This document shows, piece by piece, positions 1-49,773 of a stretch of 64,000 nucleotides of DNA. Below the pieces are notes generated by a model, which saw only the letters and a list, made by a program, of their open reading frames with translations, was not told the DNA's origin and did no database searches. Both the position numbers and the translations under genes were made by a program. Every line of letters begins with the position of its first letter. Position 1 is the first letter of the stretch. The stretch is taken from the NCBI GenBank assembly GCA_963667715.1, contig OY763926.1, forward strand, positions 213,486 through 277,485, read 5' to 3'. The DNA is from Sedimentisphaerales bacterium (GTDB lineage Bacteria > Planctomycetota > Phycisphaerae > Sedimentisphaerales > SM23-30).

Positions 1-1
1 T

Positions 2-7624: not shown

Positions 7625-7654
7625 GAATCACAAGCAAGATGCTTGTGCTACTTA
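7625..7654 (-). repeat. Class-1 REP S1
   Basis: GAATCACAAGCaagatGCTTGTGCTACTTA; on the minus strand this reads TAAGTAG-CACAAGC...GCTTGTG. It lies 1 nt from the stop of the ABC ATPase gene. Confidence 0.75.
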
Positions 7655-7655
7655 A

Positions 7656-8579
7656 TTAGGTTTCCCATGAGAATAGTTTTCTTTTGGTTGGCGAAATTGT
7701 GTATTCGATGAATTGGTCTTCCAGTGTCATTTGTGCTTCTGAATGGAGCTGTGCATTGTTGGTTGAGCACCAGTTATTGAGCGTGTCGTCGGAAACAGAT
7801 ACCAGTACAGCCTCAATCATATTGCCGTCCTTTCGACAATGGAGCATGCCGGGAATTTGTACTTCGTTTTCTGGAGTCTGGTTGAATTTTAGGACGACTT
7901 TTCTTACAGCGTTGCGGAATTCTTCCATAGTGCAGCGGGCACGCAGCTGGCCGTTATCGAGAATGGCTATGTTGTCAGCTACGCGTTCGACGTCGCTGAG
8001 TATATGGCTGGAGAACAGGATAGTTCGTCCTTCACGCTGGATGAGTTTAATTATGCCCTCGAGGAACTGACGTCTGACAACTACATCGAGGCCGAGGGTA
8101 GGGTCGTCCATGATAAGTATTTCGGGGTCTGGCGCGAGTACCATAGCGAGAGAGACCTGGGCCCGCTGGCCGTTAGAAAGTTTTCTGATCTTTTTCTTTT
8201 TCGATAGTTCAAAGAACTCGATCATTTCTTCAAACAGGTTATTATCCCAGCGTTGTGGGTAGAATGCAGCCTGATATTTTCTGAGAGCTTCGATCGACAT
8301 GCTATCGAAAAGTTTGTGTCCTTCGTTAATGTAGCCGATACGTGCGATCAGGTCGGGGGTGAGGTTGTTGCTGTCTTGGCCGTCGATGTAACAGCGGCCG
8401 CTGGTTGGTTTAGCGAATCCGAGCAGCATACGAATGGTAGTGCTTTTGCCTGCACCGTTTCTGCCGAGCAAGCCGAAGATGCTGCCTTTTGGGATCTGTA
8501 AGTTCAGATGATCGACCACTGGGGTAGTGCCGTAATATTTGGTAAGGTTCTGTGTTTCGATTGCGTATTCGCTAGTCAT
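7656..8579 (-). CDS. ABC transporter ATP-binding protein (ABC-2/DrrA-like)
   Basis: Walker A GLLGRNGAGKST, signature LSNGQRAQVSLA, Walker B ILIMDDPTLGLD. The start is set at MTSEYAIE, giving an 8-nt overlap (ATGACTAG) with the gntR stop. Confidence 0.85.
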   Translation of the reverse strand: MTSEYAIETQNLTKYYGTTPVVDHLNLQIPKGSIFGLLGRNGAGKSTTIRMLLGFAKPTSGRCYIDGQDSNNLTPDLIARIGYINEGHKLFDSMSIEALRKYQAAFYPQRWDNNLFEEMIEFFELSKKKKIRKLSNGQRAQVSLAMVLAPDPEILIMDDPTLGLDVVVRRQFLEGIIKLIQREGRTILFSSHILSDVERVADNIAILDNGQLRARCTMEEFRNAVRKVVLKFNQTPENEVQIPGMLHCRKDGNMIEAVLVSVSDDTLNNWCSTNNAQLHSEAQMTLEDQFIEYTISPTKRKLFSWET

Positions 8580-8988
8580 TGCTATTGCCTTCCCTGTTCT
8601 GGCCATTTTTGAATTTAGTCAGCCTCTGTTCAAATAGTTCTGTTATTTGCTTATGACTTAATCCCAGGTTGACAGCCTGTGAGATGATATTATCGAGTCG
8701 CTCGTTTATAATGTTTATCTGCTGGATATCGCGTGAGCTGGAGGTTGGGTTATTTATATAAGTACCTGCCCCTTTGCGAGTTATGACCAGTTCTTTTTGT
8801 TCGAGAGTCGTATATGCTTTGGCAACAGTGTTTGGATTGACAACGAGCTCGGCAGCGAGCTGACGCACCGCTGGCAGCTTATCGCCGGGCTGGAGCTGGC
8901 CCATGGCAACCATCTGCTCTATCTGGTCGACTATTTGTTTGTAAACGGGCTCTTTACTACCCGATGAGATCTGTATCCAAATTGCCAT
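8572..8988 (-). CDS. GntR-family transcriptional regulator, short YtrA-like subtype
   Basis: 138 aa. Winged-helix block: PVYKQIVDQIEQMVAMGQLQPGDKLPAVRQLAAELVVNPNTVAKAYTTLEQKELVITRKGAGTY. Confidence 0.85.
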   Translation of the reverse strand: MAIWIQISSGSKEPVYKQIVDQIEQMVAMGQLQPGDKLPAVRQLAAELVVNPNTVAKAYTTLEQKELVITRKGAGTYINNPTSSSRDIQQINIINERLDNIISQAVNLGLSHKQITELFEQRLTKFKNGQNREGNSND

Positions 8989-9009
8989 TATAAGCTCCGC
9001 ATGATACGA

Positions 9010-9034
9010 ATTGTATTACTTGTACTAATACAAT
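9010..9034. promoter_or_regulatory. Candidate GntR operator (perfect 9-N7-9 inverted repeat)
   Basis: ATTGTATTA-cttgtac-TAATACAAT, 22-46 nt upstream of the gntR start. It contains the GT..AC core expected for GntR-family operators. Confidence 0.45.
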
Positions 9035-9122
9035 ATAGCTGATGAAATGTGGTGGGGCAAATTAATTTTTGAAAAAAAGGGGGGGAGTGCAGAGTGGGAT
9101 GGGGGAAGTTTTCTGATGTGAT

Positions 9123-9264
9123 ATTTTTTATAGACGTGATAACCGTCCGAGTACGGGCTGGATTTTGGAGCCAGCTCCGATTTGTCGGAGACAGATTATG
9201 TTTGGATTAAATATGTTTGGTAATGTTAAACCTTCCTGGGCTTCGGGGGAGGAGAAGATTTTTT
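9123..9264 (+). repeat. M1 element copy B (long form)
   Basis: Near-identical to copy A. Hairpin 1 is GTCCGagtaCGGGC, with a U.G wobble where copy A has C-G. Confidence 0.6.
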
Positions 9265-9587
9265 ATCCACGGATTTTTTTTAAGGGGTTCGCTACCGGGA
9301 ACTGGTGATTGATTAATTTTCACAGATTTAAGAGGGAGAGATTAAGAGGGAATTTTACCATGAAGTTCAGGGAGGTCATGAAGGGGGAAGAATTAATATA
9401 AGAGTTTAACGCAAGGGCGCGAAGGCGCAGAGAGATGGTTGGAGATGTAGGTTTTTATGGAGTTTGTGGGTTGGTTGGAGAGTAAGGAGGAAGGCTTGAG
9501 TATCCCGATTAAGGGGGCGTAGAAGAGAAAGTCATATTAGTGTGACTTTCTTGTCGGATAGTTTGTCATGTTATGAGATGTAATATT

Positions 9588-9620
9588 AAGAATCACAAGC
9601 GAGGACGCTTGTGCTACTTA
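9588..9620 (-). repeat. Class-1 REP S2
   Basis: AGAATCACAAGCgaggacGCTTGTGCTACTTA. The TAA stop of the 9618-10388 gene is the TAA of TAAGTAG. Confidence 0.75.
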
Positions 9621-10388
9621 GGGGATGGTTATTATGTCTTGTACTTTGTATTTTTTTAGTAGGTCGGTGATGGTGGTTGAAGTTTTTATTTTTTTTAGGC
9701 CGTCGTTGAATTTTTCGAGCTTGGAGTTTATGTCTTTAGCTTTTTTTGAGAATGCGATGAATAGCTCTTTATTGTCTAGTATTGGTTTGACGATCTCTAC
9801 TTTTTCCTTTGACGGGGCCATGACCTTGTCGTTTTCGATGCAGTAAAAAGCGACAAGCGGGTCGACGATAATGACGTGCGCTTTGCCGGCGAGTAGGTTC
9901 TGGATGTTTGACAGGTCGTCCTTGGCTTCGATCTTGGTGAGATAGTCGGCGTTGTCGATCTCCTTAGTGTTGATATAGCCGGCGACGACACCGATTTTGT
10001 ATGGTTTCAGCTCTTCGACTTTACCGGTATAGTTGAACTCGGTGGTCTTAAGCTTCATGAAGGTGAGTGGGCCGCAGATGATGGGGTCTGAGAAGATAAA
10101 CTCCGATTCGAGGTCTTTATTGTAATATTCGGGGTAATAAGCGTCTGCGTTACCGATCCGTGCGAGATCGACGCACTTTTCCCATGGCAGGAAGAAGACC
10201 TGGACGTCTGATTCGCCGGCGGCTTGATATGCGGCCTTGATGATCTCGGTAACGAACCCGTTTTCAGGGATGTTTTTGCCGACGTAAGGCTGCCAGTCGA
10301 GGGAGGTTAGCTTAATCTTTTCGGCTGAAGCGAATGTGGTTAATGTAAATATGGTCAGGAAAGTAGCGAATATTTTTGTCAGGTTCAT
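9618..10388 (-). CDS. Periplasmic substrate-binding protein, family 3 (PBPb-like)
   Basis: Signal peptide MNLTKIFATFLTIFTLTTFASA. LTSLDWQPYVG..GFVTEIIKAAYQAAG is typical of family-3 solute-binding proteins. Confidence 0.65.
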   Translation of the reverse strand: MNLTKIFATFLTIFTLTTFASAEKIKLTSLDWQPYVGKNIPENGFVTEIIKAAYQAAGESDVQVFFLPWEKCVDLARIGNADAYYPEYYNKDLESEFIFSDPIICGPLTFMKLKTTEFNYTGKVEELKPYKIGVVAGYINTKEIDNADYLTKIEAKDDLSNIQNLLAGKAHVIIVDPLVAFYCIENDKVMAPSKEKVEIVKPILDNKELFIAFSKKAKDINSKLEKFNDGLKKIKTSTTITDLLKKYKVQDIITIP

Positions 10389-11316
10389 AATTTTGGTCCG
10401 TAAAAGGTTAAAGGTAAAAAGTTAAAGGTTTTATGTTTACCTGTATTATGTATCGTGTGATATTTGGCGGGACTTATGGCGGTTGGTGGGAGATGGTTGA
10501 TTATGGGGCGGCTGGTTGTGGGTTGGAGTGAGTAGGGTTATGGGTAAGTGGTTTGTTGATGGGAGGTTATTGGGATTGATAAGGTGAGAGCGGTGTATGG
10601 TGGGGCGGGTGGGTTATCGGACGGATTAGGGTGGGAATAAATGATTGATATGGGTGGGTGAATGTGGATAATATGTATGATTGTAAAAGGTAAGAGTAGT
10701 TGTCCACAGATTTGTTGAAAGGGGTTTGCTGCCGCAAACGCTGATTGATTAATTTACGCGGATTTAAGAAGAGGAGTAATTAAGAAATATATTTACCATG
10801 AAGTTCATGGAGATCTTAGTGACGGTCGAGCCGCAACCAAAAGTTTTATGTAAGAAGAGAATTAAGAGTTTAACGCAAAGTCGCCAGGTCGCAAAGAGTT
10901 GGTTGGCGATTGGGGGGGGGGAGATGATGGCAGTATGAAGAGTTTTTTGGGGAACCACAGATGAACACGGATGAACACCGATAAGGGGAAGTTGGGGAGA
11001 TACAAGATACATAGCAGCCGTAAAGGGGGGAAGAAGGAAATGGCTAGGATGCGAGGGTTTTTAGGATAAGAAGATTAAGAGAAGAGTTGGTTCTCGCAGA
11101 GGCGTGAAGATTTGGTTGGAGATGTGGGCGTTGGGGAGTTTGTGGTTTTGTTGGAAAGTAAGGAAGAAGACTTAAGAATCCCGATGTGTAACGGGAAACT
11201 CTTGCGCGAAGGGTTGGTTGGGAAGCTGCTTAGGAGACGCAAGATTTTGCGTCTCTACGTGGGGGGATGGTTTTTTTTTGGAAGTAGATAAACGAGAATG
11301 AATAGAAGAAACGAAG
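10389..11316 (+). repeat. Mosaic intergenic cluster C3 (AAAGGTA repeats, G/T-rich tract, a, b, c, g, h-variant, j, class-2 REP)
   Basis: Module a is at 10703-10772 with a compensated stem, GTTTGC..GCAAAC. GGTTGG/GGGTGG-rich DNA spans ~10440-10700. Confidence 0.8.
11233..11258 (-). repeat. Class-2 REP R2-1
   Basis: GGAGACGCAAgattTTGCGTCTCTAC; the minus strand reads GTAG-AGACGCAA..TTGCGTCT. Confidence 0.7.
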
Positions 11317-12927
11317 ATGACTAAGAAGAATAAGAAAAGTAGTAAGGGGCTGCGTCGTTATCTGGCGCGGATCGATACTGGCCGGATGGGTCATATATTT
11401 ACTGATTGTGTGGTGATCGGAAGTGGCGTTGCGGGGCTGCGAGCGGCGATAGAGGCTGCGAAGGCAGGTAATGTTATACTGATGACCAAGGGCGAGGTGC
11501 CGGACTGTAATTCGTTCTATGCCCAGGGCGGGATCGCGGCGGTGGTGCGTGTCGATGATAGTTTTGAGTCGCATATATCTGATACTCTAAATGCTGGCGG
11601 CGGGTTGTGCGAGGTTGATATAGTTAGTAAGGTGGTGCGGGAAGCGCCGGAGCATATGCGTGAGCTGCGGGAGTGGGCGACGCCGTTTGATATGAAAGAT
11701 GGTGAGATCGATGCCGGGCGTGAAGGAGGTCATACGAACTATCGGATAGCACATGCTCATGGTGATGCGACTGGTCGTGCGATGGTAGAAGCGTTGTGGG
11801 GGCAGGTGAAGGCGAATCCCCGGATAAAGGTGTGGGAGGAGTGTTTCAGTATCGACCTGTTGACGAATGAGGGTCGGTGTGTGGGGGTAGTGAACTGGCA
11901 TAATAAGTATCGGATGCAGTGCTGTTGGGCAGGTTGTGTGGTGTTGGCTAGTGGCGGTGCGGGCAGGTTATGGCGTGAGACGACTAACCCGGAGGCTGCG
12001 ACTGGTGATGGGCTGGCGATGGCGTGGCGTGCGGGAGCTGAGCTGGCTGATCTGGAGTTTATGCAGTTTCATCCGACGACTCTGTATATAGCGGGAGCTG
12101 AGCGGACACTGATAACTGAGGCGCTGCGTGGTGCGGGAGCTAAGCTGGTAGATGGCGAAGGTCGACAGTTTATGCAGGATTATCATGAGATGGGTGAGCT
12201 GGCGCCGCGTGATATAGTTAGCCGGGCGATCTTTGACGAGATGGCGAAGACGAAGGCGACTAGTGTGTATTTGGATATGCGTCATCTGGGTCGCGATTTT
12301 GTGGCGAAGAAGTTTCCGACGATAAGTGCGTTGTGTAAGTCGTTTGATATTGATGTTGAGACTGATCTGGTGCCGGTTCGGCCGAGTGCTCATTATATGG
12401 TGGGCGGAGTGAAGACAGATATAGAAGGGCGTACGAATCTGGCGGGTCTGTATTGCTGTGGCGAGGTGGCGTGTACCGGGCTCCATGGTGCGAATCGGCT
12501 GGCGAGTAATTCGCTGCTGGAGGCGCTGGTGTTTGGTAAGATATGCGGGGAGGGAGTGTGTAAGGAGCTGGCGGAAGGGGTGACGGCGGCGATGTATCCG
12601 ATGAACTATGAGATAGCAGAGTCGGAACGGACGCGACTGGATGTGCCGGATGTGGTGAATTCGCTGAAGGCGCTGATGTGGCGTAATGTGGGGCTGGCGC
12701 GTGAGGAGAGCCATCTGGCGGAGGCGATCGAGATAATTGAGTTTTGGCATAGGTATGTGATGGATAAGGTGTTCGATAGCCCGGGCCAGTGGGAATGTCA
12801 GAATATGCTGACGGTGAGCTATTTGATAACGCAGCTGGCGCTGGAGAGGCAGGAGTCGCGAGGTGTGCATTTTCGGTTGGATTATCCGGAGGTGCAGGAG
12901 GAATATGGGTATCATTCGCGGGTGTGA
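11317..12927 (+). CDS. nadB: L-aspartate oxidase
   Basis: FAD motif VIGSGVAGLRAA; also YAQGGIAA, RPSAHYMVGGV and GLYCCGEVACTGLHGANRLASNSLLE. The start may be the internal ATG (MGHIF). Confidence 0.92.
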   Translation: MTKKNKKSSKGLRRYLARIDTGRMGHIFTDCVVIGSGVAGLRAAIEAAKAGNVILMTKGEVPDCNSFYAQGGIAAVVRVDDSFESHISDTLNAGGGLCEVDIVSKVVREAPEHMRELREWATPFDMKDGEIDAGREGGHTNYRIAHAHGDATGRAMVEALWGQVKANPRIKVWEECFSIDLLTNEGRCVGVVNWHNKYRMQCCWAGCVVLASGGAGRLWRETTNPEAATGDGLAMAWRAGAELADLEFMQFHPTTLYIAGAERTLITEALRGAGAKLVDGEGRQFMQDYHEMGELAPRDIVSRAIFDEMAKTKATSVYLDMRHLGRDFVAKKFPTISALCKSFDIDVETDLVPVRPSAHYMVGGVKTDIEGRTNLAGLYCCGEVACTGLHGANRLASNSLLEALVFGKICGEGVCKELAEGVTAAMYPMNYEIAESERTRLDVPDVVNSLKALMWRNVGLAREESHLAEAIEIIEFWHRYVMDKVFDSPGQWECQNMLTVSYLITQLALERQESRGVHFRLDYPEVQEEYGYHSRV

Positions 12928-13530
12928 ATGTAGGGGGGGGATTCACAGATTTTTTGAAAGGGGTTCGCTGGGGCGAACAGCTGATTGATTAATTAACGCG
13001 GATTTAAGAGGGAGAATAATTAAGAAATATCTTTACCATGAAGTTCATGGAGATCATGAAGAGGGAAGAATTAATATAAGAGTTTAACGCAAGGGTGCTA
13101 AGTCGCAAAGAGTTGGTGGGCGACTGGGGGGGAGTTTGAGATGGTGGCATTGAGAAGAGTTTTTGTGAACCACAGAGGACACAGAGAAATAAGAAGAAGA
13201 AGGGTTTCACGCAAAGGGGCAAGGTGGTTGGTGCCCGCAAAGGGAGAAGAAAGAAAATTGCTAGGATGCGAGGATTATTAGGATAAGAAGAAGAGGTATT
13301 TCTCGCAGAGCTCGCGGAGGCGCAGAGGGAAGAAAGTTTAATAATAAGAGTTTTAACGCGAAGAGATGGTTAGGGTGTATAGTGTTGGGGAGTATATTAT
13401 ATGGTTGGGAAGTAAGGGAGAAGACTAAAGAATCCCGATGTGTATCGGGAAACTCTTGCGCGGGGGGGGAGAAGGGAGACGCAAGATTTTGCGTCTCTAC
13501 GGATGGGGTGGTTGGTGGGGTTGTGAAGAT
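12928..13530 (+). repeat. Mosaic intergenic cluster C4 (a, b, c, d, e, f, g, h, j, class-2 REP); the most complete copy
   Basis: Module a is at 12942-13012, starting 15 nt after the nadB stop. All modules appear in the canonical order. Confidence 0.85.
13475..13500 (-). repeat. Class-2 REP R2-2
   Basis: GGAGACGCAAgattTTGCGTCTCTAC. Confidence 0.7.
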
Positions 13531-13569
13531 AAAAAAAAGGCTCGGTAGTTGGTGCTGCCGGGCCTTTTT
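13531..13569. terminator. Bidirectional intrinsic-terminator-like hairpin
   Basis: A8-GGCTCGG..CCGGGCC-T5, 23 nt downstream of the stop of the 13592-14524 gene. The stem has one mismatch/wobble. Confidence 0.5.
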
Positions 13570-13591
13570 GTTTGGTTGGGGGTTGGGGTGG

Positions 13592-14524
13592 TCAGGCGTT
13601 TGAGCCGGAGCCTAGTTTGTATGCGGCACCGACGGCCAGGGCTGCAAAGAGCAGGTCCATGATGCCGAGGCTTTGGATGAGTCCTTCTTTTATGATAGAA
13701 GCTTTGTCGGCGTCTATGCCCTGTTCTCTGGTGAATGAGTATGTAAGGCGTGCGTTATGGATCTTTTCTTCGTCGGTCCATGCGCCGGCAATGGCACCAG
13801 CTTTAATAGTTATATCGGTAATCTGCTGTCTTTCGTCATCGTTGAGTTCTGTGCCGTTAGAGAATTTATCGCGTAGATTATCGTCCATGAGAGTGAATAT
13901 AGCGACGCCGAGCAGGTTCTCCTGATCGTCGAGACTGGCGAGTATCTCCCGGTCGGTCATAGCTGAGACGGGTTTTTCGGCATATTCATCGTATATCCAG
14001 TTGAGTACCAGGACCTTGCCGCCGATAATGGCGCAAAGGGCGATGACGGCGGCAGTTACACCGAGTTTTTGTGATGGCTCGGCACCGCCGAAAAGGATAC
14101 CGAAGCCGGAGAGGACGCCTACTCCGATAGCGATGTATCCGATCTCATAGCCGGTGAATTTAGCGATAAGAGCCCATATGAACGCGCCGATAAGGGCACC
14201 GACGCAGCTGCAAATAACAGAAGCGGTGAACTTTGAGGCGCTGGCAGCGGCGGCAGAGGATGGGCCGGCAGGTTTGGGCGGCTCGAACGCTTCGAGTCCA
14301 GAAGTGGCAGGTTCCGATTTCGGGGCGGGGCGTTCGTGCTCGATAGTTTCACCTTCGTCTAGAGATGAGAGCATGTTACGCAGCTCGTTCTCTTCTTTGG
14401 GCTGCTGAGGTGGCTGAGGGACGACCAAAACAGAATTACAATCAGGACATTTAACCTTATGCTCAGCGTATTTCATTGGTACTTTGAGCTTTTTACTACA
14501 GTTGTTGCAAGAGAATCTTATCAT
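13592..14524 (-). CDS. Hypothetical zinc-ribbon membrane protein
   Basis: N-terminal CNNC..17..CPDC ribbon, then a Pro/Ala-rich linker, glycine-rich TM segments and a terminal TM. Confidence 0.6.
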   Translation of the reverse strand: MIRFSCNNCSKKLKVPMKYAEHKVKCPDCNSVLVVPQPPQQPKEENELRNMLSSLDEGETIEHERPAPKSEPATSGLEAFEPPKPAGPSSAAAASASKFTASVICSCVGALIGAFIWALIAKFTGYEIGYIAIGVGVLSGFGILFGGAEPSQKLGVTAAVIALCAIIGGKVLVLNWIYDEYAEKPVSAMTDREILASLDDQENLLGVAIFTLMDDNLRDKFSNGTELNDDERQQITDITIKAGAIAGAWTDEEKIHNARLTYSFTREQGIDADKASIIKEGLIQSLGIMDLLFAALAVGAAYKLGSGSNA

Positions 14525-14759
14525 GTTACACTCCCGGAAGTGAAGTAATATCAGTTATTTAACACACAAATAAGCTGTGGGCACACAATGTGGCCCATAA
14601 ATGATAATACTTCTGTAAATATTAGATTACCATAAAATCTGTTAGCACTTTTAGCTGGTCAATATGGCCGGAGCGGCTTGTAGATGAATATATTGAAAAA
14701 CCAAAAGAGCTACTGCGAAACAAAACAATGATATTTTAGCACTATCGGGGGGTGGGGGC

Positions 14760-15340
14760 AAATGTTTTTTGATCCACTGATTTTTTGAAAGGGGTTCGCT
14801 ACTGCGAACAGCTGATTGATTAATTAACGCGGATTTAAGAGAGAGGATAATTAAGAAATATATTTACCATGAAGTTCATGGAGATCATGAAGGGGGAAGA
14901 AAAATATAAGAGTTTAACGCAAGGGCGCTAAGTCGCAAAGAGTTGGTTGGCGATTAAGGGTTAGTTTGAGATGTTGGCAATAGGATTTTTTTGCAGGGAT
15001 TAGAGGATAGGAGGATGATTTTTTAGGATAAGAGTAAGGGAAGAGTTTTTACCATGAAGTTCATGTAGATCATGAAGGGGGAAGAAAAAATATAAGAGTA
15101 TAACGTGAATGGATGGTTGGCGGTGCGGGTAATTTGGTAGTTTATTATATGGTTGGGAAGTAAGGAAGAAGACTTGAGAATACCGATGTGTATCGGGAAA
15201 CTCTTGCGTGGAAGAGAAAGTCAGTATTAGTGTGACTTTCTTGTATTATAATTCTTCATATTATGCAATATTAAGAATCACAAGCCCCGATGTTCTTCGA
15301 GACTTGTGCTACTTAGGAGATGCAAGGTGTTGTGTCTCTA
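14760..15340 (+). repeat. Mosaic intergenic cluster C5 (a, b, c, d, g-variant, second b, j, GAAAGTCA hairpin, S3, degenerate class-2 REP)
   Basis: Module a is at 14773-14843. Module b (ACCATGAAGTTCATGGAGATCATGAAG) occurs twice. Confidence 0.85.
15274..15315 (-). repeat. Class-1 REP S3 (extended stem with nested mini-hairpin)
   Basis: AGAATCACAAGccCCGAtgttcTTCGagaCTTGTGCTACTTA, 25 nt 3' of the 15341-16609 stop. Confidence 0.7.
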
Positions 15341-16609: not shown

Positions 16610-16854
16610 ATACTCTCTTCTCCAGTTGCCGGTTAGGTGTTGACCTTGATGGTTAGTATCAAGGGAATTTGCGGGTGTATTTATATATTATACAATATAT
16701 GTGAGTTGTGGCAAAATATCGGGATGAAGATTTTTTTTATCCACGGATTTTTTTAGATGGGTTCGCTACCGCAAACTGCTGATTGATTAATTGGCACAGA
16801 TTTAAGAAGGGGAATGATTTAGAAGAGGATTAAGATTTTAACACAAAGTGCAAA

Positions 16855-16970
16855 GATTTTTTTGGATGGGATAACCGACCGCCTGTGGCGGTCTGGATTT
16901 TAGCGGCAGATTGAGTGGGGCGGAATATAGATTGTTGAATGTTTACATTCTCCGGGGGCGGGGGAGAAAG
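16855..16970 (+). repeat. M1 element copy C (short form)
   Basis: GGGATAACC, then GACCGCCtgtGGCGGTC, then CTGGATTTT-AGCGG-CAGATTG. Terminal hairpin TTCTCC..GGAGAA. Confidence 0.6.
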
Positions 16971-17368: not shown

Positions 17369-17410
17369 AGAATCACAAGTCCCGATGTGCTTCGGGACTT
17401 GTGATTCTTA
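17369..17410 (-). repeat. Class-1 REP S4 (long stem, nested mini-hairpin, no GTAG)
   Basis: AGAATCACAAGTCCCGAtgtgcTTCGGGACTTGTGATTCT. Confidence 0.65.
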
Positions 17411-17436
17411 GGAGACGCAATATTTTGCGTCTCTAC
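17411..17436 (-). repeat. Class-2 REP R2-3
   Basis: GGAGACGCAAtattTTGCGTCTCTAC. Confidence 0.7.
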
Positions 17437-17450
17437 GGGGGGGGGAGATA

Positions 17451-17481
17451 TAGGCCCGGACAGTATTGGTGGCCGGGCCTA
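17451..17481 (-). terminator. Stem-loop 8 nt after the LRR gene stop (no U-run)
   Basis: TAGGCCCGG-13 nt-CCGGGCCTA, a perfect 9-bp stem. Confidence 0.4.
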
Positions 17482-17487
17482 TGTGTT

Positions 17488-20676: not shown

Positions 20677-20718
20677 AGAATCACAAGTCCCGATGTGCTT
20701 CGGGACTTGTGCTACTTA
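20677..20718 (-). repeat. Class-1 REP S5
   Basis: AGAATCACAAGTCCCGAtgtgcTTCGGGACTTGTGCTACTTA. Confidence 0.7.
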
Positions 20719-20744
20719 GGAGACGCAATATTTTGCGTCTCTAC
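20719..20744 (-). repeat. Class-2 REP R2-4
   Basis: GGAGACGCAAtattTTGCGTCTCTAC. Confidence 0.7.
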
Positions 20745-23413: not shown

Positions 23414-23446
23414 AGAATCACAAGCAAGGATGCTTGTGCTACCTTA
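23414..23446 (-). repeat. Class-1 REP S6
   Basis: AGAATCACAAGCaaggatGCTTGTGCTACCTTA. The stop codon of the 23444-24031 gene lies in the flank. Confidence 0.7.
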
Positions 23447-34319: not shown

Positions 34320-34691
34320 TATTATTTATCCGTAGATTATTTTTGAGGTGTTTGCTGGGGCGAACGGCTTATTGATTAATTTGCACAGATTTAAGAATGA
34401 AATTATAGATATGAATGACCCTGGTGTGTTTTTGCATCAGGGTTATTTTTTTTTGGGGAAAATAGAATTAAGAGGAAGATTTAACGCAAGGTCGCTAAGA
34501 CGCAAAGATTTGGTTGGCGGTATTGGGGATTTGTGAGTTTGTGACTTTGGTTGGGGAGTAAGGAAGAAGACTAAAGAATCCCGATGTGCATCGGGAAATG
34601 GCCGGAACTCTTGCGTGAAGAGATGGATGGCGGGATGGGGGATTAGGGAGTTTGCTGGGATTAGTAGAGACGCAAAATCTTGCGTCTCTAC
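34320..34691 (+). repeat. Mosaic intergenic cluster C9 (a, c-variant, j, class-2 REP)
   Basis: Module a is at 34329-34397 with stem GTTTGC..GCGAAC (wobble). Module j contains TCCCGATGTGCATCGGGA. Confidence 0.8.
34664..34691. repeat. Class-2 REP R2-6 (GTAG on both strands)
   Basis: GTAGAGACGCAAaatcTTGCGTCTCTAC. The TAG stop of the 34688-37417 gene is the TAG of the minus-strand GTAG. Confidence 0.75.
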
Positions 34692-40513: not shown

Positions 40514-41290
40514 ATACACCTGTATTTATTAGTTGTCAAGTGATGTGAAAAAAAATTTCTACCTATATTACCTTATCCGACTAACATGATATTTATAGGT
40601 TAAGATAAAGTCTGTTTTACTATTAATGAGGTATGAATATTGGTTAAAAATGGATTATTAACCGATAAAAAACTATTTTCTTGTTTATGTTAACGTGGTT
40701 TATGCCGATTTTGGTAAAGAAGGCAAGTTGGAGGTGTGCTTTAACCAAAAAGAGTTACCAATATGCCATTAATGGTTCAATTGTCCAATTTTATTTGTAT
40801 TGTCCAATTGTTATAATAAAAACATACTTAAGTGAATGGAGAGTATTTTAGAAAGATAGTAGATAGGCGTTCTGACCTGTATAGAGAATAGAGAATTGTG
40901 GAGAGGCTTGCGTTTTCTGCAGTATTTTAAATTATCTGCATAAAAGCAAACATGCGTATTTTTGTCTTATTGTATATTTCGAGTACATTGCACCCGTATT
41001 ATATTGCAAGTACTGTTTTCTGGTTATGAGATGTATAATAAGTAGTAATCTGTCGAAGCGGCAGTAATCCCCCTCCGATTTCATTCCCCACAGCATTTAT
41101 CCGCCTGATTTTATTGTGCGATTTAGCATTTTTAATTGTTCAGTATTTTAAGCAAAGCCAGTATTGGCGATTTCATAGAGATTAGAAGTGCTAGAGTATA
41201 TTTAATTAAGAATTGTTTAGAGTAGGATCCTGACGGAGTTGTATCAGTCAGTCCTTGGTTTACCTATATATTTGTACTAGGAGAAATGGA

Positions 41291-43603
41291 ATGAAAAAAT
41301 TTGTATTAGGTTTGTCGCTGCTTTCACTGGCATTTTGTTCAGTAACAGCAAACGCTCAGACCAAAGCGTACTGGCGTTTTGAAAATGGAGTTGTAGGAAC
41401 AGACGTTCAGCATTTAACAGGTGAAGGCGGCATAGCTAACGCCAGTGCTGATATACCAGACCTATCAGGTAATGGTTATGGACTATCAGCGTGGAATACT
41501 GGTGGCGACCCAGGTTACAGATGGGTTGATCGTACAGCTGGTGATATTACACTGACCAATCAGGCCAGCACAATGTCAGTACAGCACGCAGGTAACAATC
41601 CAGGATTCTATACCTTCTCAGAAGAACTACGCAGCTGGAGTCCACAGGCATTTACTATCGAGCTGACATTTAAGCCACGTAATGGTGACCACAGAACATA
41701 TGTTGGTCGTGACAGCTTTGGTACTAATGAGGATACAGAAAACCTTGCAGCACTGTATGTTAAGACCAATCCTGATCAGGATCTGGCATTTTCATACTGT
41801 GACGTAACAGGTGTATGGCATACATGTGTAACTGATCCAGGTGCGGTTCAGGAATACATTCAGGCTAGTGATGAGTTTGGTGATACAATTCCCTGGTACA
41901 CAATGGTTGCAGAAACTGATGGTACTACAATGAGAATTTATCTGCTTAACCATGATGAGCCAGAACTAGGCTATCAGCTTCTGAAGGAAGTAGCAAACTC
42001 GGAAACAGAAAACCCTGCACTGACAACCGGTGCTGGTGGTGCTGGCGACTGGGTTGCAGGTAACTTCACAGTAGGTCGCGGTATGTGGGCTGGCGGTCAT
42101 GGCGATCGTGCTTACGGTCTGATCGACGAAGTACGTCTTTCAGAAGGTTGTCTTGATGTAGATGACTTCCTGTACAGCGGTTACCAGCCAATGGCAACTA
42201 ACCTGACTAGTACTCAGGTTGCAAATACAGCTGATAAGATTGTAGAAACAACATTGAGCTGGAATACAGCGGTAAATGTTAATGGTACAGTAGAATCAAG
42301 CATCGTTGACCAGGTTATGTTCATGAGCACACCAGAAGATCCTAACTTCACATATGTTAAGTCATTCGGTGACCCAGGTGCAACACTGGAAAACACATAT
42401 GCAATGGATCTTGACTTTGACTCAGTATACAAGTGGAATATTGCAACAGTACTAGCTGGCGAAGTTCCATCATTGACACTGAACCAGAGCACAATTTCTG
42501 ATCTTGATCCTAATAATGTTCTTAGTATCGAAACTAATGTTATCGAAACTCTTCCTTCAATGCCAATTATCCTGACTAACCCAGTTGGAACACTGGTAAA
42601 TGAAGGTGAAGCACACAGCATGGAAGTAACAGTTGATTCAATTACAACACCAGTATTTACATGGTATAAGTCTGATGATAATGTAGTATCAGAAGATGAC
42701 GTTGTAGTTGGTACAAATGACGGTGTGCTTGCTCTTGCTGATATCACAGTTGATGATATGGCTTACTACTACTGTGGTGTAGTAAATGACAGTGATGTAG
42801 CGGTATACTCTAATGTTGCACTGCTTGAAGTAGCGAGCATGGTAGCAGAGTTTACTTTTGATAATACACTGATTGACACAGTAAATGGCGTTATTGGTGT
42901 AGGTTTTGTTGGTGAAAACACAGATGTAGAAATGACCTATGAAGAAGGTATGGTAGGCGATGCAATCAGCTTCAATGGTGTTGATGAGCACGTTGAGATC
43001 CCATGCTTTGTACGTAACAGCTACACAATCGAGATGTGGGTTAAGACAACTCAGGCAGCTGGCGGCGGCGACTGGTGGTATGGAGCTGGTCTTGTCGATG
43101 GTGAAATGCCAGGTGGTGTTGCTGATTACGGTATTGTTCTTAGCGATAACAAATTTGCGTACGGTTCAGGTCCAAGCGGAACAACCATCAGATCAGCTAA
43201 GGTTGTAAATGATGGCGACTGGCACTACTGTGTTGCTACTCGTGATGTTGTAAACGGTGATATGGCTATCTATGTTGACGGTCAGTTGGAAGCATCAGCA
43301 ACTAATATAGATGCTGGCGTAACTCAGGCAGTAACTGATATGCTTTCTATCGGTAAGATAAGAAGCGATAGCCGTTTCTATAACGGTCTGATCGATGAAG
43401 TTAAGATCTATAACTATGCGATCGGTGAGTTTGATGTTGCTGCTAAGTATCATGCAATAGATCCAGAAGCTAAGATTTGTATCCAGAGCGTTAAGCCTGA
43501 TACCAAGTTCGACATGAACAATGACTGTATCGTTGATGTTCAGGACCTTGCTAAGATCGCAGCTAACTGGCTTGATTGTGCAATCTACCCAACTTGTTTC
43601 TAA
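41291..43603 (+). CDS. Secreted LamG / Ig-like / LamG protein with C-terminal dockerin-like module
   Basis: Signal peptide MKKFVLGLSLLSLAFCSVTANA. N-terminal LamG-type start (AYWRFENG). Ig-like segment (YYCGVVNDSDVAVYSNVALLEV). The second LamG domain contains YTIEMWVKT, DGDWHYCVATRD, IYVDGQLE and LIDEVKIYNYA. The tail is DMNNDCIVDVQDLAKIAANWLDC. Confidence 0.8.
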   Translation: MKKFVLGLSLLSLAFCSVTANAQTKAYWRFENGVVGTDVQHLTGEGGIANASADIPDLSGNGYGLSAWNTGGDPGYRWVDRTAGDITLTNQASTMSVQHAGNNPGFYTFSEELRSWSPQAFTIELTFKPRNGDHRTYVGRDSFGTNEDTENLAALYVKTNPDQDLAFSYCDVTGVWHTCVTDPGAVQEYIQASDEFGDTIPWYTMVAETDGTTMRIYLLNHDEPELGYQLLKEVANSETENPALTTGAGGAGDWVAGNFTVGRGMWAGGHGDRAYGLIDEVRLSEGCLDVDDFLYSGYQPMATNLTSTQVANTADKIVETTLSWNTAVNVNGTVESSIVDQVMFMSTPEDPNFTYVKSFGDPGATLENTYAMDLDFDSVYKWNIATVLAGEVPSLTLNQSTISDLDPNNVLSIETNVIETLPSMPIILTNPVGTLVNEGEAHSMEVTVDSITTPVFTWYKSDDNVVSEDDVVVGTNDGVLALADITVDDMAYYYCGVVNDSDVAVYSNVALLEVASMVAEFTFDNTLIDTVNGVIGVGFVGENTDVEMTYEEGMVGDAISFNGVDEHVEIPCFVRNSYTIEMWVKTTQAAGGGDWWYGAGLVDGEMPGGVADYGIVLSDNKFAYGSGPSGTTIRSAKVVNDGDWHYCVATRDVVNGDMAIYVDGQLEASATNIDAGVTQAVTDMLSIGKIRSDSRFYNGLIDEVKIYNYAIGEFDVAAKYHAIDPEAKICIQSVKPDTKFDMNNDCIVDVQDLAKIAANWLDCAIYPTCF

Positions 43604-43680: not shown

Positions 43681-44060
43681 GGGGATGGGGGGTTGAGTGA
43701 TGGGGAGGTGGATTGGACGATTGGGGGTTGGTTTGAGATGATAAAATTAAGATTTTTTACCACAGAGGGCACTGAGAAGAAGAGGATTTCACGCAAAGGC
43801 GCAAGGTGCTTCGCACCCGCAAAGGAAGAAGAATAGTGGCTAGGATGCGAGGATTAATAGGATAAGAGGAAGAGGAGATTGTTTCTTACAGAGACGTGAA
43901 GAGTTGGTTGGCAAAGTTATACCAAGAATCACAAGTCCCGATGTACTTCGGGACTTGTGCTACCTAAAAGGAAGAAGACTAAAGAACCGGCTGAAGGCCG
44001 GAACTCTTGCGCGGGGGGGAGTTGGTGGAGAATGTGGGGTTGGTTTATGAGAAAAGTAAA
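43681..44060 (+). repeat. Mosaic intergenic cluster C10 (d, e, f, g, h-variant, S7, j-variant; lacks module a)
   Basis: TTTGAGATGATAAAATT.., ACCACAGAGGGCACTGAGAAG, CACGCAAAGGCGCAAGGTGCTTCGCACCCGCAAAGG and GCTAGGATGCGAGGATTAATAGGATAAGAGG. Confidence 0.8.
43925..43966 (-). repeat. Class-1 REP S7
   Basis: AGAATCACAAGTCCCGAtgtacTTCGGGACTTGTGCTACCTA. Confidence 0.7.
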
Positions 44061-44257: not shown

Positions 44258-44319
44258 AGTAAGTAATAAGTAACAAGTAACAAGTAACAAGTAACAAGTA
44301 ACAAGTAACAAGTAACAAG
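44258..44319 (+). repeat. Heptamer microsatellite (GTAACAA)n, about 6 perfect plus 2 degenerate units
   Basis: GTAAGTAATAAGTAACAAGTAACAAGTAACAAGTAACAAGTAACAAGTAACAAG. Confidence 0.85.
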
Positions 44320-44355
44320 TTCAGGTTCCGCCCTTTGGGCGAGGCTGATTAATTA

Positions 44356-47394: not shown

Positions 47395-47785
47395 GAGTTT
47401 TCCACAGATTTAGTCCAAGGTGTTCGCTACCGCGAACTGCTGATTGATTAATTTACACAGATTAGAGTAGGAAGAGAAATAGGAGTTTAACGCAAGGACG
47501 CGAAGACGCAAAGGGTTGGTTGGGAAATAAGGAAGAAGGCTGGAGAATCCCGATAAATCGGGAACTCTTGCGTGGGGGGAGTGGGTTGGCGATTTGGGTT
47601 GGTTTGGATGAGATGCGTGGCTTTTTATTTGTATTCGCTTTGCTCATGGCTTGGAAATCAAACTAAAGGGTGTGTTGCCTAAAAGAGTAAGTCAGAATAT
47701 TGTGTAACTTATACACCAGATTCATTGAGATGGTTGGCAAAGTTATACCAAGAATCACAAGCGAGGACGCTTGTGCTACTCATGG
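47395..47785 (+). repeat. Mosaic intergenic cluster C11 (a, c, j, S8)
   Basis: Module a is at 47401-47470. Module j has loop variant TCCCGATAAATCGGGA. Confidence 0.8.
47751..47782 (-). repeat. Class-1 REP S8
   Basis: AGAATCACAAGCgaggacGCTTGTGCTACTCA; the stem and loop are identical to S2. Confidence 0.7.
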
Positions 47786-47947
47786 GCAACACGCCCTAAA
47801 GTTTGAACTCTTAACGCTTCACGAGGTGATTTGGTGTTGTGGTGGGGGAATGGATTGATTTATTTGGGTGTGTGTGCTATTATTTTATGGTAAATCTGTG
47901 TATTTTAGGTGGTTAGACATTCACTATACTAACAATTGAGGGAACAA

Positions 47948-49165
47948 ATGGGTTCATTATTATTGGCTAAGATCAAGTGGACGGTAATAGGTAATAGTAG
48001 TTATGACATGCTGATGAAGGTGCTGATGTGCCTGGCGGTGTGGGGGGTGTCGTTATTTATTTGCAAGAAATTGGTGGTACCATTGTTACATCGCTTGGTC
48101 AAGCGTACGCCGTATGATTGGGATGATGTGCTGGCAGATTGTAAGGTATTTGAGAAGCTGGTCCATGTAGCGGTTGGTTTGGCCGTGTACTTTATGGCTT
48201 TGTGGGGGGTAAATGCGGTGTTGCTGATGCAGCTGGCGATGGTGTATTTGCTGTTTGCGTGTCTGCTGAGTTGTTGTGCGTTTCTGGATGCGGTAGTGAT
48301 ATTGTATGGTCGGTTGAAATATTCCGATAAACTTCCGATCAAGGTATTTGTCCAGGTTGCGAAGATATTGCTCTGGATAACAACTGTAATATTGGCAATC
48401 TCGGTGCTGATCGGTCAGAACCCTGGTTATCTGCTGACAGGTTTGGGAGCGATGACTGCGGTGATCTTATTGATCTTTAAGGATTCGATACTCGGGCTGG
48501 TAGCGGGTATTCAGCTGTCGACGAATGATATGGTGCGGGTTGGCGACTGGGTCGAGATGCCGAAATATGGCGCGGACGGTGATGTTATAGATATATCACT
48601 GACGACGGTAAAGGTTCAAAACTGGGATAAGACAATTACGACGATCCCGACGTATACGATGGTGTCAGATTCGTTTAAGAACTGGCGTGGTATGAGTATG
48701 TCGGGCGGGCGTCGGATCAAGAGGTGTATTAATCTTGATATGCGTTCGGTGAAATTTTGCGATGAGGGGATGCTGGAGCGGTTTTCGAGTTTTCGGCATG
48801 TGAGTGAGCATATAGCGAAGAAGAAAGAAGAGCTTGCGAAGTTTAACGCAGAAAATGGTATAGATGATAGTGTGTTGGTGAATGGTCGTCGGATAACGAA
48901 CCTGGGCACGTTCCGGGCGTACCTGGAAGGGTATCTGAGGAATCATCCGATGATCAATAAGGAGATGACGTTTTTAGTGAGGCATCTGCAGCCAAGTGAG
49001 AATGGGCTGCCGATCGAGATATATGTATTTAGCAGTGATAAGGTATGGGCGAACTATGAAGGGATCCAGGCAGATATATTTGACCATATACTTGCGGTTG
49101 TGCCTGAGTTTGATCTGAAGGTGTTTCAGAGTCCGACTGGTGGAGATTTTGAGAAGTTGGTGTAG
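47948..49165 (+). CDS. Mechanosensitive ion channel family protein (MscS-like)
   Basis: TM segments, then the MscS core LIFKDSILGLVAGIQLSTNDMVRVGDWVEM..GDVIDISLTTVKVQNWDKTITTIPT. Confidence 0.85.
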   Translation: MGSLLLAKIKWTVIGNSSYDMLMKVLMCLAVWGVSLFICKKLVVPLLHRLVKRTPYDWDDVLADCKVFEKLVHVAVGLAVYFMALWGVNAVLLMQLAMVYLLFACLLSCCAFLDAVVILYGRLKYSDKLPIKVFVQVAKILLWITTVILAISVLIGQNPGYLLTGLGAMTAVILLIFKDSILGLVAGIQLSTNDMVRVGDWVEMPKYGADGDVIDISLTTVKVQNWDKTITTIPTYTMVSDSFKNWRGMSMSGGRRIKRCINLDMRSVKFCDEGMLERFSSFRHVSEHIAKKKEELAKFNAENGIDDSVLVNGRRITNLGTFRAYLEGYLRNHPMINKEMTFLVRHLQPSENGLPIEIYVFSSDKVWANYEGIQADIFDHILAVVPEFDLKVFQSPTGGDFEKLV

Positions 49166-49326
49166 TTTTTTATTATCCACAGATTTTTTTTAAGGGGTTC
49201 GCTACCGCGAACGGCTGATTGATTAATTTACACAGATTAAGAAGAAGAGTAATTAAGAGTTATTTTTGCTATGAAGGTTATGGAGAGGGAAGGATGTGTG
49301 AAAAAGTGCGAAGTGCGAAGTGCGAA

Positions 49327-49443
49327 GATTTTTGGGACGGGATAACCGACCGAGTACGGTCTGGATCTTTACGGCAGATTGAAGGTGGGGTAATGGCGGT
49401 TGATGGTGGTTTTCTTTCTCGGATTGCGGGGGAGGGGGAGATT
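49327..49443 (+). repeat. M1 element copy E (short form)
   Basis: GGGATAACC, then GACCGagtaCGGTC, then CTGGATCTTT-ACGG-CAGATTG, then a terminal G-rich hairpin. Confidence 0.55.
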
Positions 49444-49731
49444 TAATGTAAGGGCGCGAAGTTACAAAGAGTTGGTTGGAGGTGTAGGATTTTATGGAGT
49501 TTTTGGTTTGGTTGGTAAATAGGGAAGAAGAAATTGCTAGGATGCTAGGATTTTTAGGATAAGAAAATGAAGAGAAGATTGTTTCTCGCAGAGGCGCGAA
49601 GGTGCAGAGGCTTGGTTGGCGACTGAGGGTGGGTTGGTATTTGAGATATGGTTAGGAAGTAAGGAAGAAGGCTAAAGAACCCGATTAATCGGGAACTCTT
49701 GCGCGGGGGAGTTGGTTGGCGAAGTTGTATT

Positions 49732-49773
49732 ATGAATCATAAGTCCCGATGTATTTCGGAGCTTGTGATACCT
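49732..49773 (-). repeat. Class-1 REP S9 (diverged)
   Basis: TGAATCATAAGTCCCGAtgtatTTCGGAGCTTGTGATACCTA. Confidence 0.6.

Follow-up and report, generated by a model that had tools for sequence, protein, structure and literature searches.

Co-oriented GTAG-type REP hairpins as probable end modules of mosaic intergenic blocks in a Sedimentisphaerales chromosome

In a 64-kb stretch of a Sedimentisphaerales (Phycisphaerae) chromosome, hereafter the window, nine similar hairpins (class 1) are quite probably ordinary GTAG-type REPs of a REP/RAYT system, which form end modules of larger blocks and whose orientation is linked to the chromosome strand. The name REP, which a previous sequence-only reading had given them, is supported by a RAYT gene with GTAG hairpin doublets at 1-2160 of the window and by the class-1 stem beside a RAYT in a relative (L124).

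In the window, the motif CACAAG-N(3-25)-CTTGTG is found eight times, always on the plus strand, against a mean of 0.08 and a maximum of 1 in shuffled sequences; at 49732 there is a ninth, degenerate copy (CATAAG...CTTATG), and the nine positions on one strand listed by that reading are borne out. A profile search of both strands of the window gave no further dispersed copies, the other matches being only related hairpins at 1-2160. GTAG was also said to lie on the minus strand in every copy (copies are named here by their first coordinate); it abuts the perfect stem there in seven of the nine, and the statement fails for 17369 (GAAT on both arms) and 49732 (GTAT). Two loop classes were found, a short one (7625, 9588, 23414 and 47751) with an 8-bp stem and a loop of 3-4 nt, and a long one (15274, 17369, 20677, 43925 and 49732) with a stem of up to 12 bp and an inner TCCCGA/TCGGGA hairpin. 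The whole element is an extended imperfect palindrome, TAAGTAG-stem-loop-stem-ATTCTTA, in which TAAG pairs with CTTA, and DNA folding gave -10.9 and -13.9 kcal/mol (z of -8.0 and -6.5). Stem pairing was retained in 100% of cells across 19 distinct variants, both sides were changed in 3 of 7 pairs, and the covariation score was reached by none of 500 shuffles; as read from sequence, the stem is kept through compensatory substitutions. Unrelated metagenome contigs hold five genuine class-1 hairpins, one of them an inverted doublet, and the dispersed copies of the window, none of them an inverted doublet, stand singly or are joined head-to-tail to a REP of a second GTAG class. This class-2 REP (GTAG AGACGCAA aatc TTGCGTCT CC) was found on the minus strand at 11231..11258, 13473..13500, 17409..17436 and 20717..20744, the last two head-to-tail with class-1 copies 17369 and 20677, and a symmetric class-2 REP with GTAG on both strands lies at 34664..34691, its minus-strand GTAG supplying the TAG with which a 909-aa gene ends.

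A RAYT-like Y1 (HUH) transposase of 205 aa is encoded at 714..1331 on the plus strand. Its scores are just under the cut-offs, both for NCBIfam NF047646 REP_Tyr_transpos (E 6.4e-21, 74.8 bits, cut-off 80) and for Pfam Y1_Tnp (22.8, cut-off 23), and among solved structures its best match is E. coli TnpAREP (4ER8), to which the HUH, Tyr and Asn residues align; many of its 903 homologues bear the JGI name RayT. Tandem doublet units with near-identical GTAG-G[AT]CAAGCA hairpins, 6.5 in all, stand on both sides of the gene: three of 234 nt on the left (1..698) and 3.5 of 232 nt on the right (1336..2159), with the same doublet. Each 234-nt unit contains an ORF tail (ending in ILQKAFSGELTK and a stop), a GTAG-GACAAGCA hairpin on the plus strand, two small hairpins and an inverted GTAG-GTCAAGCA hairpin on the minus strand, and one more hairpin, GTAG-GTCAACCA-tcc-TGGTTGAC, lies within the last RAYT codons (1300..1331, plus strand). 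The product is the candidate transposase for the G[AT]CAAGCA doublets around it. The class-1 stem itself, in the form GTAG CACAAGCA tcca TGCTTGTG ATTCTT and paired with GTAG CTCAAGCA, lies on the flanks of the RAYT of relative L124; relatives L140 and L141 carry GACAGGCA/GTCAGGCA doublets on either side of the RAYT, and L125 has five GTAG GTCAAGCA copies in tandem. Identity to the L124 RAYT is 64% for P0132, the second RAYT paralogue of our genome, and 57% for the window RAYT, and the cognate enzyme of class 1 would more probably be P0132 than the window RAYT.

The class-1 hairpin is the right-hand module of mosaic intergenic blocks, of which 14 with lengths of 0.3-1 kb take up 14% of the window. 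Module order is fixed and colinear in the 14 blocks (D3, D5, D9, class 1, class 2); the block at 9114..9620 (plus strand), for example, reads D3, D5, D9, GAAAGTCA hairpin, class 1. The other blocks are at 4550-5082, 10684-11271, 12940-13521, 14764-15348, 16722-17444, 19816-20763, 23390-23446, 27599-28102, 34318-34692, 43749-44052, 47396-47780, 49166-49781 and 53281-53901. They occupy 3' intergenic space and reach the stops on both sides, and four relatives have neither these blocks nor the GC skew described below. Neisserial intergenic mosaic elements (NIMEs) are likewise intergenic arrays, mosaics of several short repeat families in which a short repeat recurs at the junctions; in NIMEs this repeat (dRS3) is inverted and serves a phage integrase. 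In the blocks of the window, AGWTGGTTGG is such a recurring junction repeat, but the sequences are unrelated and no link to a phage integrase was seen for the window blocks.

Stretches of 300 nt in two blocks (F and G) are 96-99% identical, so some copies came by segmental duplication and not by transposition. Class-1 copies could all be individually immobile fossil modules of blocks whose spread or homogenization relies on segmental duplication, gene conversion or another block-level mechanism; class-1 orientation and position would simply come with the block. We consider this a serious possibility, but the less probable one. The constant order from D3 to class 2 in 14 blocks, the F and G identity, the GAGWTGGTTGG-N-GAAGTTATA flank preceding six of the nine class-1 copies and the loss of GTAG in 17369 and 49732 fit it, and so does the view of Bertels and Rainey that the inverted doublet is the mobile unit and singlets are immobile remnants, i.e. 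decayed REPINs (PMC3116915). On the other hand, copies 7625 and 23414 are nearly isolated, with little repeated around them but small flanks, the hairpins of 9588 and 47751 are identical in otherwise different blocks, and a block model by itself gives no reason for a single block orientation. Within the REP/RAYT reading, the dispersed copies, which lack the inverted-doublet form, may still be immobile remnants carried by blocks.

Orientation is uniform well beyond class 1. Self-BLAST of the window gave 422 direct and 11 inverted HSPs, with all blocks pointing one way, and the repeat families have one common orientation regardless of gene strand. A sense-oriented GTAG REP lies within 100 nt of 8 of 18 minus-gene 3' ends, against 0 of 12 plus-gene 3' ends (Fisher p = 0.01). 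The link between hairpin orientation and minus-strand genes, implied by the sequence-only reading, is not supported, since all repeat families are co-oriented whatever the gene strand and no plus-strand gene is followed by a plus-oriented copy; co-orientation is a property of the chromosome strand, neither linked to genes nor specific to class 1. Genes of either orientation show a third-codon GC skew of +0.46 when measured on the plus strand, which is G-rich throughout and presumably leading in replication. Co-orientation most likely results, as we infer from one 64-kb window in which the sign of the skew is constant, from replication-coupled, strand-specific single-strand transposition or retention.

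RAYT enzymes need single-stranded DNA, recognize GTAG plus a hairpin and cut at CT (PMC3333891, PMC8266576). By analogy with the E. coli, Stenotrophomonas and Marinomonas enzymes, for which this was shown, the copies would be made and moved by a RAYT that works on single-stranded DNA and cuts between C and T beside the hairpin; neither a class-1 transposition event nor an empty site was seen among the relatives, whose intergenic DNA is too divergent for insertion borders. As far as Ton-Hoang 2010 is cited in PMC3971601 and PMC3333891, IS200/IS605 elements also have a related Y1 HUH transposase with a strand-specific single-strand mechanism and a copy orientation tied to fork movement; the repeated unit here differs in having no transposase inside. 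Moreover, the GTAG strand, the one recognized by RAYT, is the C-rich strand, and if G-rich means leading, this opposes the IS200/IS605 (IS608) rule as given in those citations, by which the active strand is on the lagging-strand template.

Among the closest described systems is the Group-3 REPtron of Stenotrophomonas maltophilia (REPSm/TnpASm; PMC8266576). There, as here, a perfect palindrome of 8 bp with a loop of 3 nt (23 nt) has GTAG immediately on its 5' side, a single RAYT gene has REPs on its flanks, and CT dinucleotides stand on both sides of the hairpin (C|TAAGTAG...ATTC|T). Our host is of another phylum (Planctomycetota), the stem sequence is different, the system is known from sequence alone, and the dispersed copies are singlets of one orientation embedded in long mosaics. 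As in E. coli REP/BIME with TnpAREP (PDB 4ER8; PMC3333891, PMC3479197), REPs and other conserved motifs form mosaic intergenic elements, and doublets are amplified in tandem with flanking DNA beside the transposase gene; however, the E. coli stem is bulged and imperfect, orientation alternates within BIMEs, strand-wide polarity was not reported, and the present blocks are far longer (0.3-1 kb) with many non-REP modules. The Pseudomonas REPIN-RAYT system (PMC3116915) likewise has one RAYT per REP type, inverted REP doublets flanking the RAYT (here the 234-nt units and those of L124, L140 and L141) and tandem REPIN clusters that take in flanking sequence, whereas dispersed class-1 copies are not inverted doublets. 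The GTAG-tagged superfamily (Di Nocera et al. 2013, PMC3733652) shares the GTAG terminus, the preference for sites downstream of ORFs, singlet-dominated families, head-to-tail dimers and clusters reiterated with flanking DNA; the class-1 stem family NNCAAGCN was likened by general traits to the superfamily, which comprises 24 families in that paper, and uniform orientation over tens of kb, as found here, was not described there.

Six of the nine class-1 copies lie 0-75 nt after minus-strand stops, in agreement with the earlier count of six within 80 nt, and its three statements on stops were also correct. Copy 7625..7655 (minus) directly follows the ABC ATPase stop (TAA, 1 nt, then TAAGTAG; gap 0 nt); in the copies at about 9588..9621 and at 23414..23446 (both minus), the TAA of TAAGTAG and of TAAGGTAG is itself the stop of an SBP_bac_3 gene and of a coiled-coil lipoprotein gene, respectively. 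Copies 15274..15316 (minus), 17369..17412 (a perfect palindrome) and 49732..49776 (minus) are 24 nt past the stop of an LTD/dockerin gene, 75 nt past a minus-strand stop and 72 nt past the stop of a LamG/Ig gene. The remaining three, all on the minus strand, do not follow a gene end: 20677..20719 is in a divergent region upstream of ilvB (plus), 43925..43967 has its next minus-strand ORF 605 nt away, and 47751..47783 is in a divergent region 152 nt upstream of an MscS gene (plus). Class 1 comes to lie against minus-strand stops through its place as the terminal module on the right of larger blocks. The stop contact is real, yet it is a published trait of GTAG REPs, whose termini were already stated to supply stop codons (PMC3733652), and it is not new. 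In comparison with relatives, the ABC ATPase ends in FSWET instead of FSWDKA or FSWDKAKP and the SBP in IITIP instead of VVKYPAKK or ILKAAK, and proteins adjoining class-1 REPs end within about 3 residues of the normal termini. Of the earlier proposal that the element targets stops or has replaced gene termini, targeting and replacement of a few codons are both compatible with these ends, and larger replacement is ruled out by shifts of at most ~3 codons.

Under the REP/RAYT reading, contact would arise since the 5' end of the element bears TAA and TAG, since repeats would be tolerated in 3' intergenic space right up to the stop, and since an insertion clipping one or two codons would be survivable. 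Active choice of stop codons or of sites containing TA[AG] by the transposition machinery, which would make gene ends more than places where insertions are tolerated, appears unlikely to us. TAA or TAG does stand 5' of GTAG in nearly all family members of four genomes (TAAGTAG, TAGGTAG, TAGTAG), the whole REPIN-RAYT-REPIN unit of L140/L141 exactly fills the space from the pheT stop to the hemB stop, each of which overlaps a GTAG, an L139 ORF of 294 codons terminates on the TAG of GTAG, and where the SBP and ATPase genes end, TAA comes after a C|T junction. But TAA belongs to the extended palindrome, so it is carried along by the element and may be independent of the target; three of nine copies are away from stops, CT or CA suffices for known RAYT cleavage, and the relatives offer no empty site for comparison.

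It is equally doubtful that the hairpins are kept for RNA work, as weak intrinsic terminators or 3'-exonuclease barriers on minus-strand transcripts, in which case their place at stops would be selected and they would stabilize the cistron before them, including the ATPase message that precedes the permease gene. Stable hairpins by DNA folding, the six copies 0-75 nt past stops, and the proposal of REPs downstream of ORFs as RNA elements (PMC3733652) speak for it, and a terminator scan at lax settings accepts three copies on the minus strand (9613, 15308 and 23438), whose tail is ATTCTTAATA; but only these three of nine pass, the tail is U-poor, three copies are upstream of or far from gene ends, canonical bidirectional terminators lie directly alongside (23347-23384 and 13534-13569), the plus-oriented copies after plus genes that a gene-level function predicts are not present in the window, and relatives have the operon of copy 7625 with no hairpin at that place. 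If REPs moved by a RAYT affect mRNA 3' ends, this would be secondary. Copy 7625 does lie inside an operon between an ABC ATPase and its permease, as the sequence-only reading had it: the gene order is GntR, ABC ATPase and a 230-aa membrane protein with five hydrophobic segments, and a putative role in mRNA stability is plausible for this copy. Two relatives have the same gene order, with a gap of 200-240 nt and no REP at that position.

The nine class-1 hairpins are a real feature of the GTAG-REP/RAYT kind, a kind that is already known. The pattern CACAAG-N(3-25)-CTTGTG has 8 matches in the window, all on the plus strand, against a mean of 0.08 and a maximum of 1 in dinucleotide-preserving shuffles, and at 49732 a ninth copy has decayed to CATAAG...CTTATG. 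A profile made from the four short copies was run on both strands of the window and gave no extra copies except the related hairpins at 1-2160. The sequence-only reading had counted nine copies, all with GTAG on the minus strand; the nine copies are real, but GTAG is found directly 5' of a perfect stem of 8-12 bp (minus strand) in only 7 of them, as it has decayed at 17369 (GAAT on both arms) and at 49732 (GTAT). The consensus layout is GTAG-CACAAGCN-loop-NGCTTGTG, with an 8-bp stem and a loop of 3-4 nt in four copies, and a stem of up to 12 bp containing an inner TCCCGA/TCGGGA hairpin in five. Across 19 distinct variants the stem pairs in 100% of cells, compared with only 18-42% in slid controls; 3 of 7 stem pairs are changed on both sides, and the observed covariation score was reached by 0 of 500 shuffles. 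The name REP given in that reading is thus correct, as indicated by GTAG with a perfect stem, by covariation and by the association with a RAYT. The 64-kb window has nine class-1 and 5-6 class-2 copies, class 2 being a second GTAG REP type, and all are intergenic apart from overlaps with stop codons.

Searches of the whole window gave no Rfam match at gathering scores and no tRNA, and with E up to 1 the sole Rfam match in 12900-21000 was a chance-level sRNA on a terminator. Scanning of metagenomes found five genuine class-1 hairpins, one of them an inverted doublet, in unrelated contigs of higher G+C content, which are just 1.2-2 kb long and do not allow REP orientation to be read against replication. 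The loose pattern GAATCACAAG-N(5-22)-CTTGTG matched 119 loci over the genome contigs, all of them single chance matches lacking the element flanks.

The window's RAYT gene (714-1331, plus strand, 205 aa) matches the NCBIfam family 'REP-associated tyrosine transposase' with an E of 6.4e-21, and its scores lie just under the curated cut-offs (NCBIfam REP_Tyr_transpos, 74.8 versus 80 bits; Pfam Y1_Tnp, 22.8 versus 23). The closest solved structure is E. coli TnpAREP 4ER8 (E 1.6e-4), on which the HUH motif, the catalytic Tyr and the downstream Asn align as NHLH on HMH, DYI on DYI and Asn on Asn; 7 homologues all keep these residues. The gene product has 903 homologues, many with the JGI label 'REP element-mobilizing transposase RayT'. 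The gene is bracketed by tandem units of 232-234 nt at 1-698 and 1336-2159, three on one side and 3.5 on the other, each with a plus-strand hairpin GTAG-GACAAGCA-nnn-TGCTTGTC followed ∼70 nt on by an inverted GTAG-GTCAAGCA-nnn-TGCTTGAC. Within the window such inverted REP pairs (REPINs, 20-110 nt apart) are confined to these units; 0 of 9 dispersed class-1 copies form inverted doublets, all of them being singlets or joined head-to-tail with class 2. The class-1 stem differs from the G[AT]CAAGCA stems flanking the RAYT in the first stem pair or two only, and these differences are compensatory. Each 234-nt unit also carries the 3'-terminal ∼39 codons of an ORF (...ILQKAFSGELTK*), the stop of which is the TAG of GTAG, and the units adjoin a gene for a type I restriction R subunit (2168-4546). 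Pfam and tblastn searches against plasmids gave no match for this ORF tail, which may bear some resemblance to HsdS C-termini.

The nearest relatives of the ilvB product, below a 100% identical protein on a 4,585,758-nt contig, are annotated as Sedimentisphaerales or Phycisphaerae, and the find represents a clearly defined REP/RAYT system in Phycisphaerae. In a 4.24-Mb relative (locus L124), the RAYT orthologue has flanks with C[AT]CAAGCA stems, in doublets of GTAG-CTCAAGCA (plus) and GTAG-CACAAGCA-tcca-TGCTTGTG-ATTCTT (minus), and the minus-strand hairpin of this doublet is the exact class-1 hairpin. Homology of the class-1 flanks with the doublet spacer was considered and dropped, local alignments being unconvincing outside the hairpin. 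A 5.9-Mb relative (L125) has five tandem GTAG-GTCAAGCA hairpins ahead of its RAYT, and two MAG contigs with the closest RAYT (65% identity; L140 and L141) have GACAGGCA/GTCAGGCA doublets on both sides of the gene. In these contigs, REPIN-RAYT-REPIN is wedged exactly between the stops of pheT and hemB (L140 2830-3750 and L141 70-850). The source genome has two RAYT lineages, apparently matched to two stem variants. The second paralogue, P0132, is 64% identical to the L124 RAYT, compared with 57% for the window's RAYT. As published work assigns each REP type one RAYT (PMC6006769) and P0132 is closer to the L124 enzyme, P0132 is the more probable partner of class 1, and the G[AT]CAAGCA doublets would pair with the window's RAYT.

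For six class-1 copies, the distance to the stop of the right-hand minus-strand gene is 0-75 nt. The TAA of TAAGTAG or TAAGGTAG serves as the gene stop at 9618 and 23444, and at 7656 the stop and TAAGTAG are one base apart; the measured gaps bear out what had been read from the sequence on these six copies and three sites. Upon folding, class 1 is part of a longer imperfect palindrome, TAAG-TAG-stem...stem-ATT-CTTA, and because this palindrome includes TAAG and CTTA, both TAA and TAG belong to the element. TA[AG] stands directly 5' of GTAG in nearly all family members of the genomes examined. Moreover, a 909-aa gene has its stop in or on the GTAG of the class-2 copy at 34664-34691, a 294-codon ORF in a metagenome contig (L139) ends in the same way, and in L140 the stops of pheT, RAYT and hemB all overlap GTAG. 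Contact of GTAG REPs with stop codons is already in the literature (Di Nocera et al., PMC3733652). It had also been proposed that the element may have replaced gene termini. The ATPase ends in FSWET* compared with FSWDKA* and FSWDKAKP* in relatives, and the binding protein in IITIP* compared with VVKYPAKK* and ILKAAK*; these products are 1-3 residues short, which fits last codons clipped by an insertion but is also within normal variation, and nearly all ATPase homologues have 307-310 aa, as does the annotated product. The orthologue comparison limits the extent of gene-end replacement. For annotation, the hairpins and the surrounding blocks should be masked as REP/RAYT-type repeats, and their stops regarded as element-borne.

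These surroundings are mosaic. Non-coding DNA makes up 27% of the window and dispersed direct repeats 14% (9.1 kb); these repeats form 14 intergenic blocks of 0.3-1 kb with one colinear module order (among them 4550-5082, 9114-9620, 10684-11271, 12940-13521, 14764-15348, 16722-17444, 19816-20763, 27599-28102, 34318-34692, 43749-44052, 47396-47780, 49166-49781 and 53281-53901). The blocks are built of ∼15 short hairpin or heptamer modules, all co-oriented and of variable presence, in the order module D3, a CCATGAAG hairpin, module D5, CACAGAG/CGCAAAG runs, module D9, class 1 and class 2, so that D3 is the end module on the left and class 1 on the right; the junction motif AGWTGGTTGG occurs ∼30 times, on the plus strand only. 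On the left, a block comes within 0-13 nt of the stops of plus-strand genes; on the right, it abuts those of minus-strand genes, and 113-300 nt of free space is kept upstream of minus-gene starts. The position of class 1 at the right end, together with block edges at stops, accounts for its contact with minus-strand stops only. Class-2 REPs (GTAG AGACGCAA aatc TTGCGTCT CC) lie at 11231-11258, 13473-13500, 17409-17436, 20717-20744, 34664-34691 and 26589-26616 with GTAG on the minus strand; the copies at 17409 and 20717 are joined head-to-tail to class 1, and two symmetric variants have GTAG on both strands. D9 (AAGAATCCCGATGTGTATCGGGAAACTCTTGCG; 4994-5046, 11146-11198, 13400-13452, 15148-15200, 28016-28068, 34546-34598 and others) looks like a class-1 derivative without the 3' outer arm; its prefix and inner hairpin are common to the long-loop class 1. 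As in the BIMEs of E. coli, REPs are combined with other conserved motifs in recurrent order, but the alternating REP orientation of BIMEs is absent, and the dispersed REPs and modules are all co-oriented.

Some further features of the blocks were observed. The blocks at 16841-17423 and 19905-20731 flank an LRR gene (17488-19602) and share 300-nt stretches with 96-99% identity, which points to recent segmental duplication or gene conversion, and the right-hand one (19905-20731) contains an internal 244-nt duplication. Tandem heptamer arrays (AAGTAAC x8.6, TTAGAAA x7, AAGTGCA x9 and x4.4) are present at 44261-44320, 23304-23352, 57721-57797 and 61427-61457, with the purine-rich strand on plus in all, and in relatives L126 and L127 the gap between ATPase and permease likewise contains AAGTAAY-like heptamers. 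A promoter-like TTCACA-17-AATAAT lies inside a block module on the minus strand (17209-17237, 20273-20301 and 20517-20545); it points to the left-hand minus-strand genes, and transcripts from it would begin with 5' leaders of 0.6-0.9 kb that consist of repeat modules.

Co-orientation is not peculiar to class 1. Self-comparison of the window gave 422 direct versus 11 inverted matches, and the 11 are palindromes or two paralogous genes. A sense GTAG REP lies within 100 nt of the 3' end in 8 of 18 minus-strand genes versus 0 of 12 plus-strand genes (p = 0.01), and blocks are found between convergent, divergent and tandem genes; hence, orientation goes with the chromosome strand rather than with the adjacent gene. 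The proposal that orientation is tied to minus-strand genes is not supported, every block being co-oriented whatever its gene context. The plus strand is G-rich throughout the window, with a GC skew of +0.26 overall (0.17-0.39 per 4 kb), +0.36 in intergenic DNA and +0.46 at third codon positions, whichever strand the gene is on. As the G-rich strand is usually the leading strand, the plus strand is taken as the leading strand. At the loci of four relatives (ilvB 81-90% identical; ilvBN and GntR-ABC ATPase operon) no blocks were found, and the skew there is -0.09 to +0.11. More unusual than stop contact are the total polarity, the long mosaic blocks and the extreme strand skew, all in this one lineage; over tens of kilobases, the REP singlets show no exception to the polarity.

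RAYT enzymes, which act only on single-stranded DNA, recognise the strand with GTAG and cleave C|T on either the 5' or the 3' side of the hairpin (PMC3333891, PMC8266576), and class 1 has CT on both sides (C|TAAGTAG...ATTC|T). In IS200/IS605, orientation is set by use of the lagging-strand template (PMC3971601). On these grounds, the most economical account of polarity would be a strand-specific, replication-coupled process by which class-1 copies would spread. Two observations caution against this model: the recognised GTAG strand is here on the C-rich strand, opposite to the IS608/IS200/IS605 rule, and some copies arose by block duplication (blocks F and G, the LRR-flanking pair). Replication coupling of REP spread has been proposed from IS200/IS605, and we found no documentation of it for REPs; if polarity flips at origin and terminus, this would be direct genomic evidence of replication-coupled, RAYT-driven REP spread. 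We regard as doubtful the broader proposition that in one Sedimentisphaerales lineage single REPs, not inverted doublets, and a dozen other hairpin or heptamer modules are deposited or retained strictly on one replication strand, as replichore-wide polar mosaic arrays making up about a quarter of the DNA. On this doubtful reading, the arrays and the exceptional mutational asymmetry (GC3 skew +0.46), neither of which is seen in relatives whose ilvB is 81-90% identical, would share a cause in the exposure or processing of single-stranded DNA at the fork.

Among other explanations, it is possible that class-1 hairpins act in RNA as terminators or stabilisers, and 3 of 9 copies passed a lax terminator scan with the tail ATTCTTAATA; better terminators adjoin two of them. 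The pattern can be explained without such a role, into which the three copies distant from gene ends do not fit. Canonical bidirectional intrinsic terminators at 23347-23384 and 13534-13569 adjoin REP copies in convergent regions, so REPs are not the sole 3'-end hairpins there. An integron attC array, suggested by co-oriented intergenic repeats and a GTTTAAC motif in D5, was dropped from gene content, as housekeeping genes (ilvBN, rny, ymdB, nadB) lie on both strands 2-13 kb apart; none of the ORFs scanned in the window was recognised as an integrase. An organelle or plasmid origin was dismissed, as the housekeeping genes are chromosomal ones and the contig measures 4.59 Mb.

Two gene pairs in the window are also paralogous. 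The LamG/Ig-domain genes at 41255-43603 (plus) and 49849-52074 (minus) are inverted, with arms 72% complementary, and the GntR-ABC ATPase pair at 39017-40316 is a paralogue of the pair at 7656-8988 that carries copy 7625.
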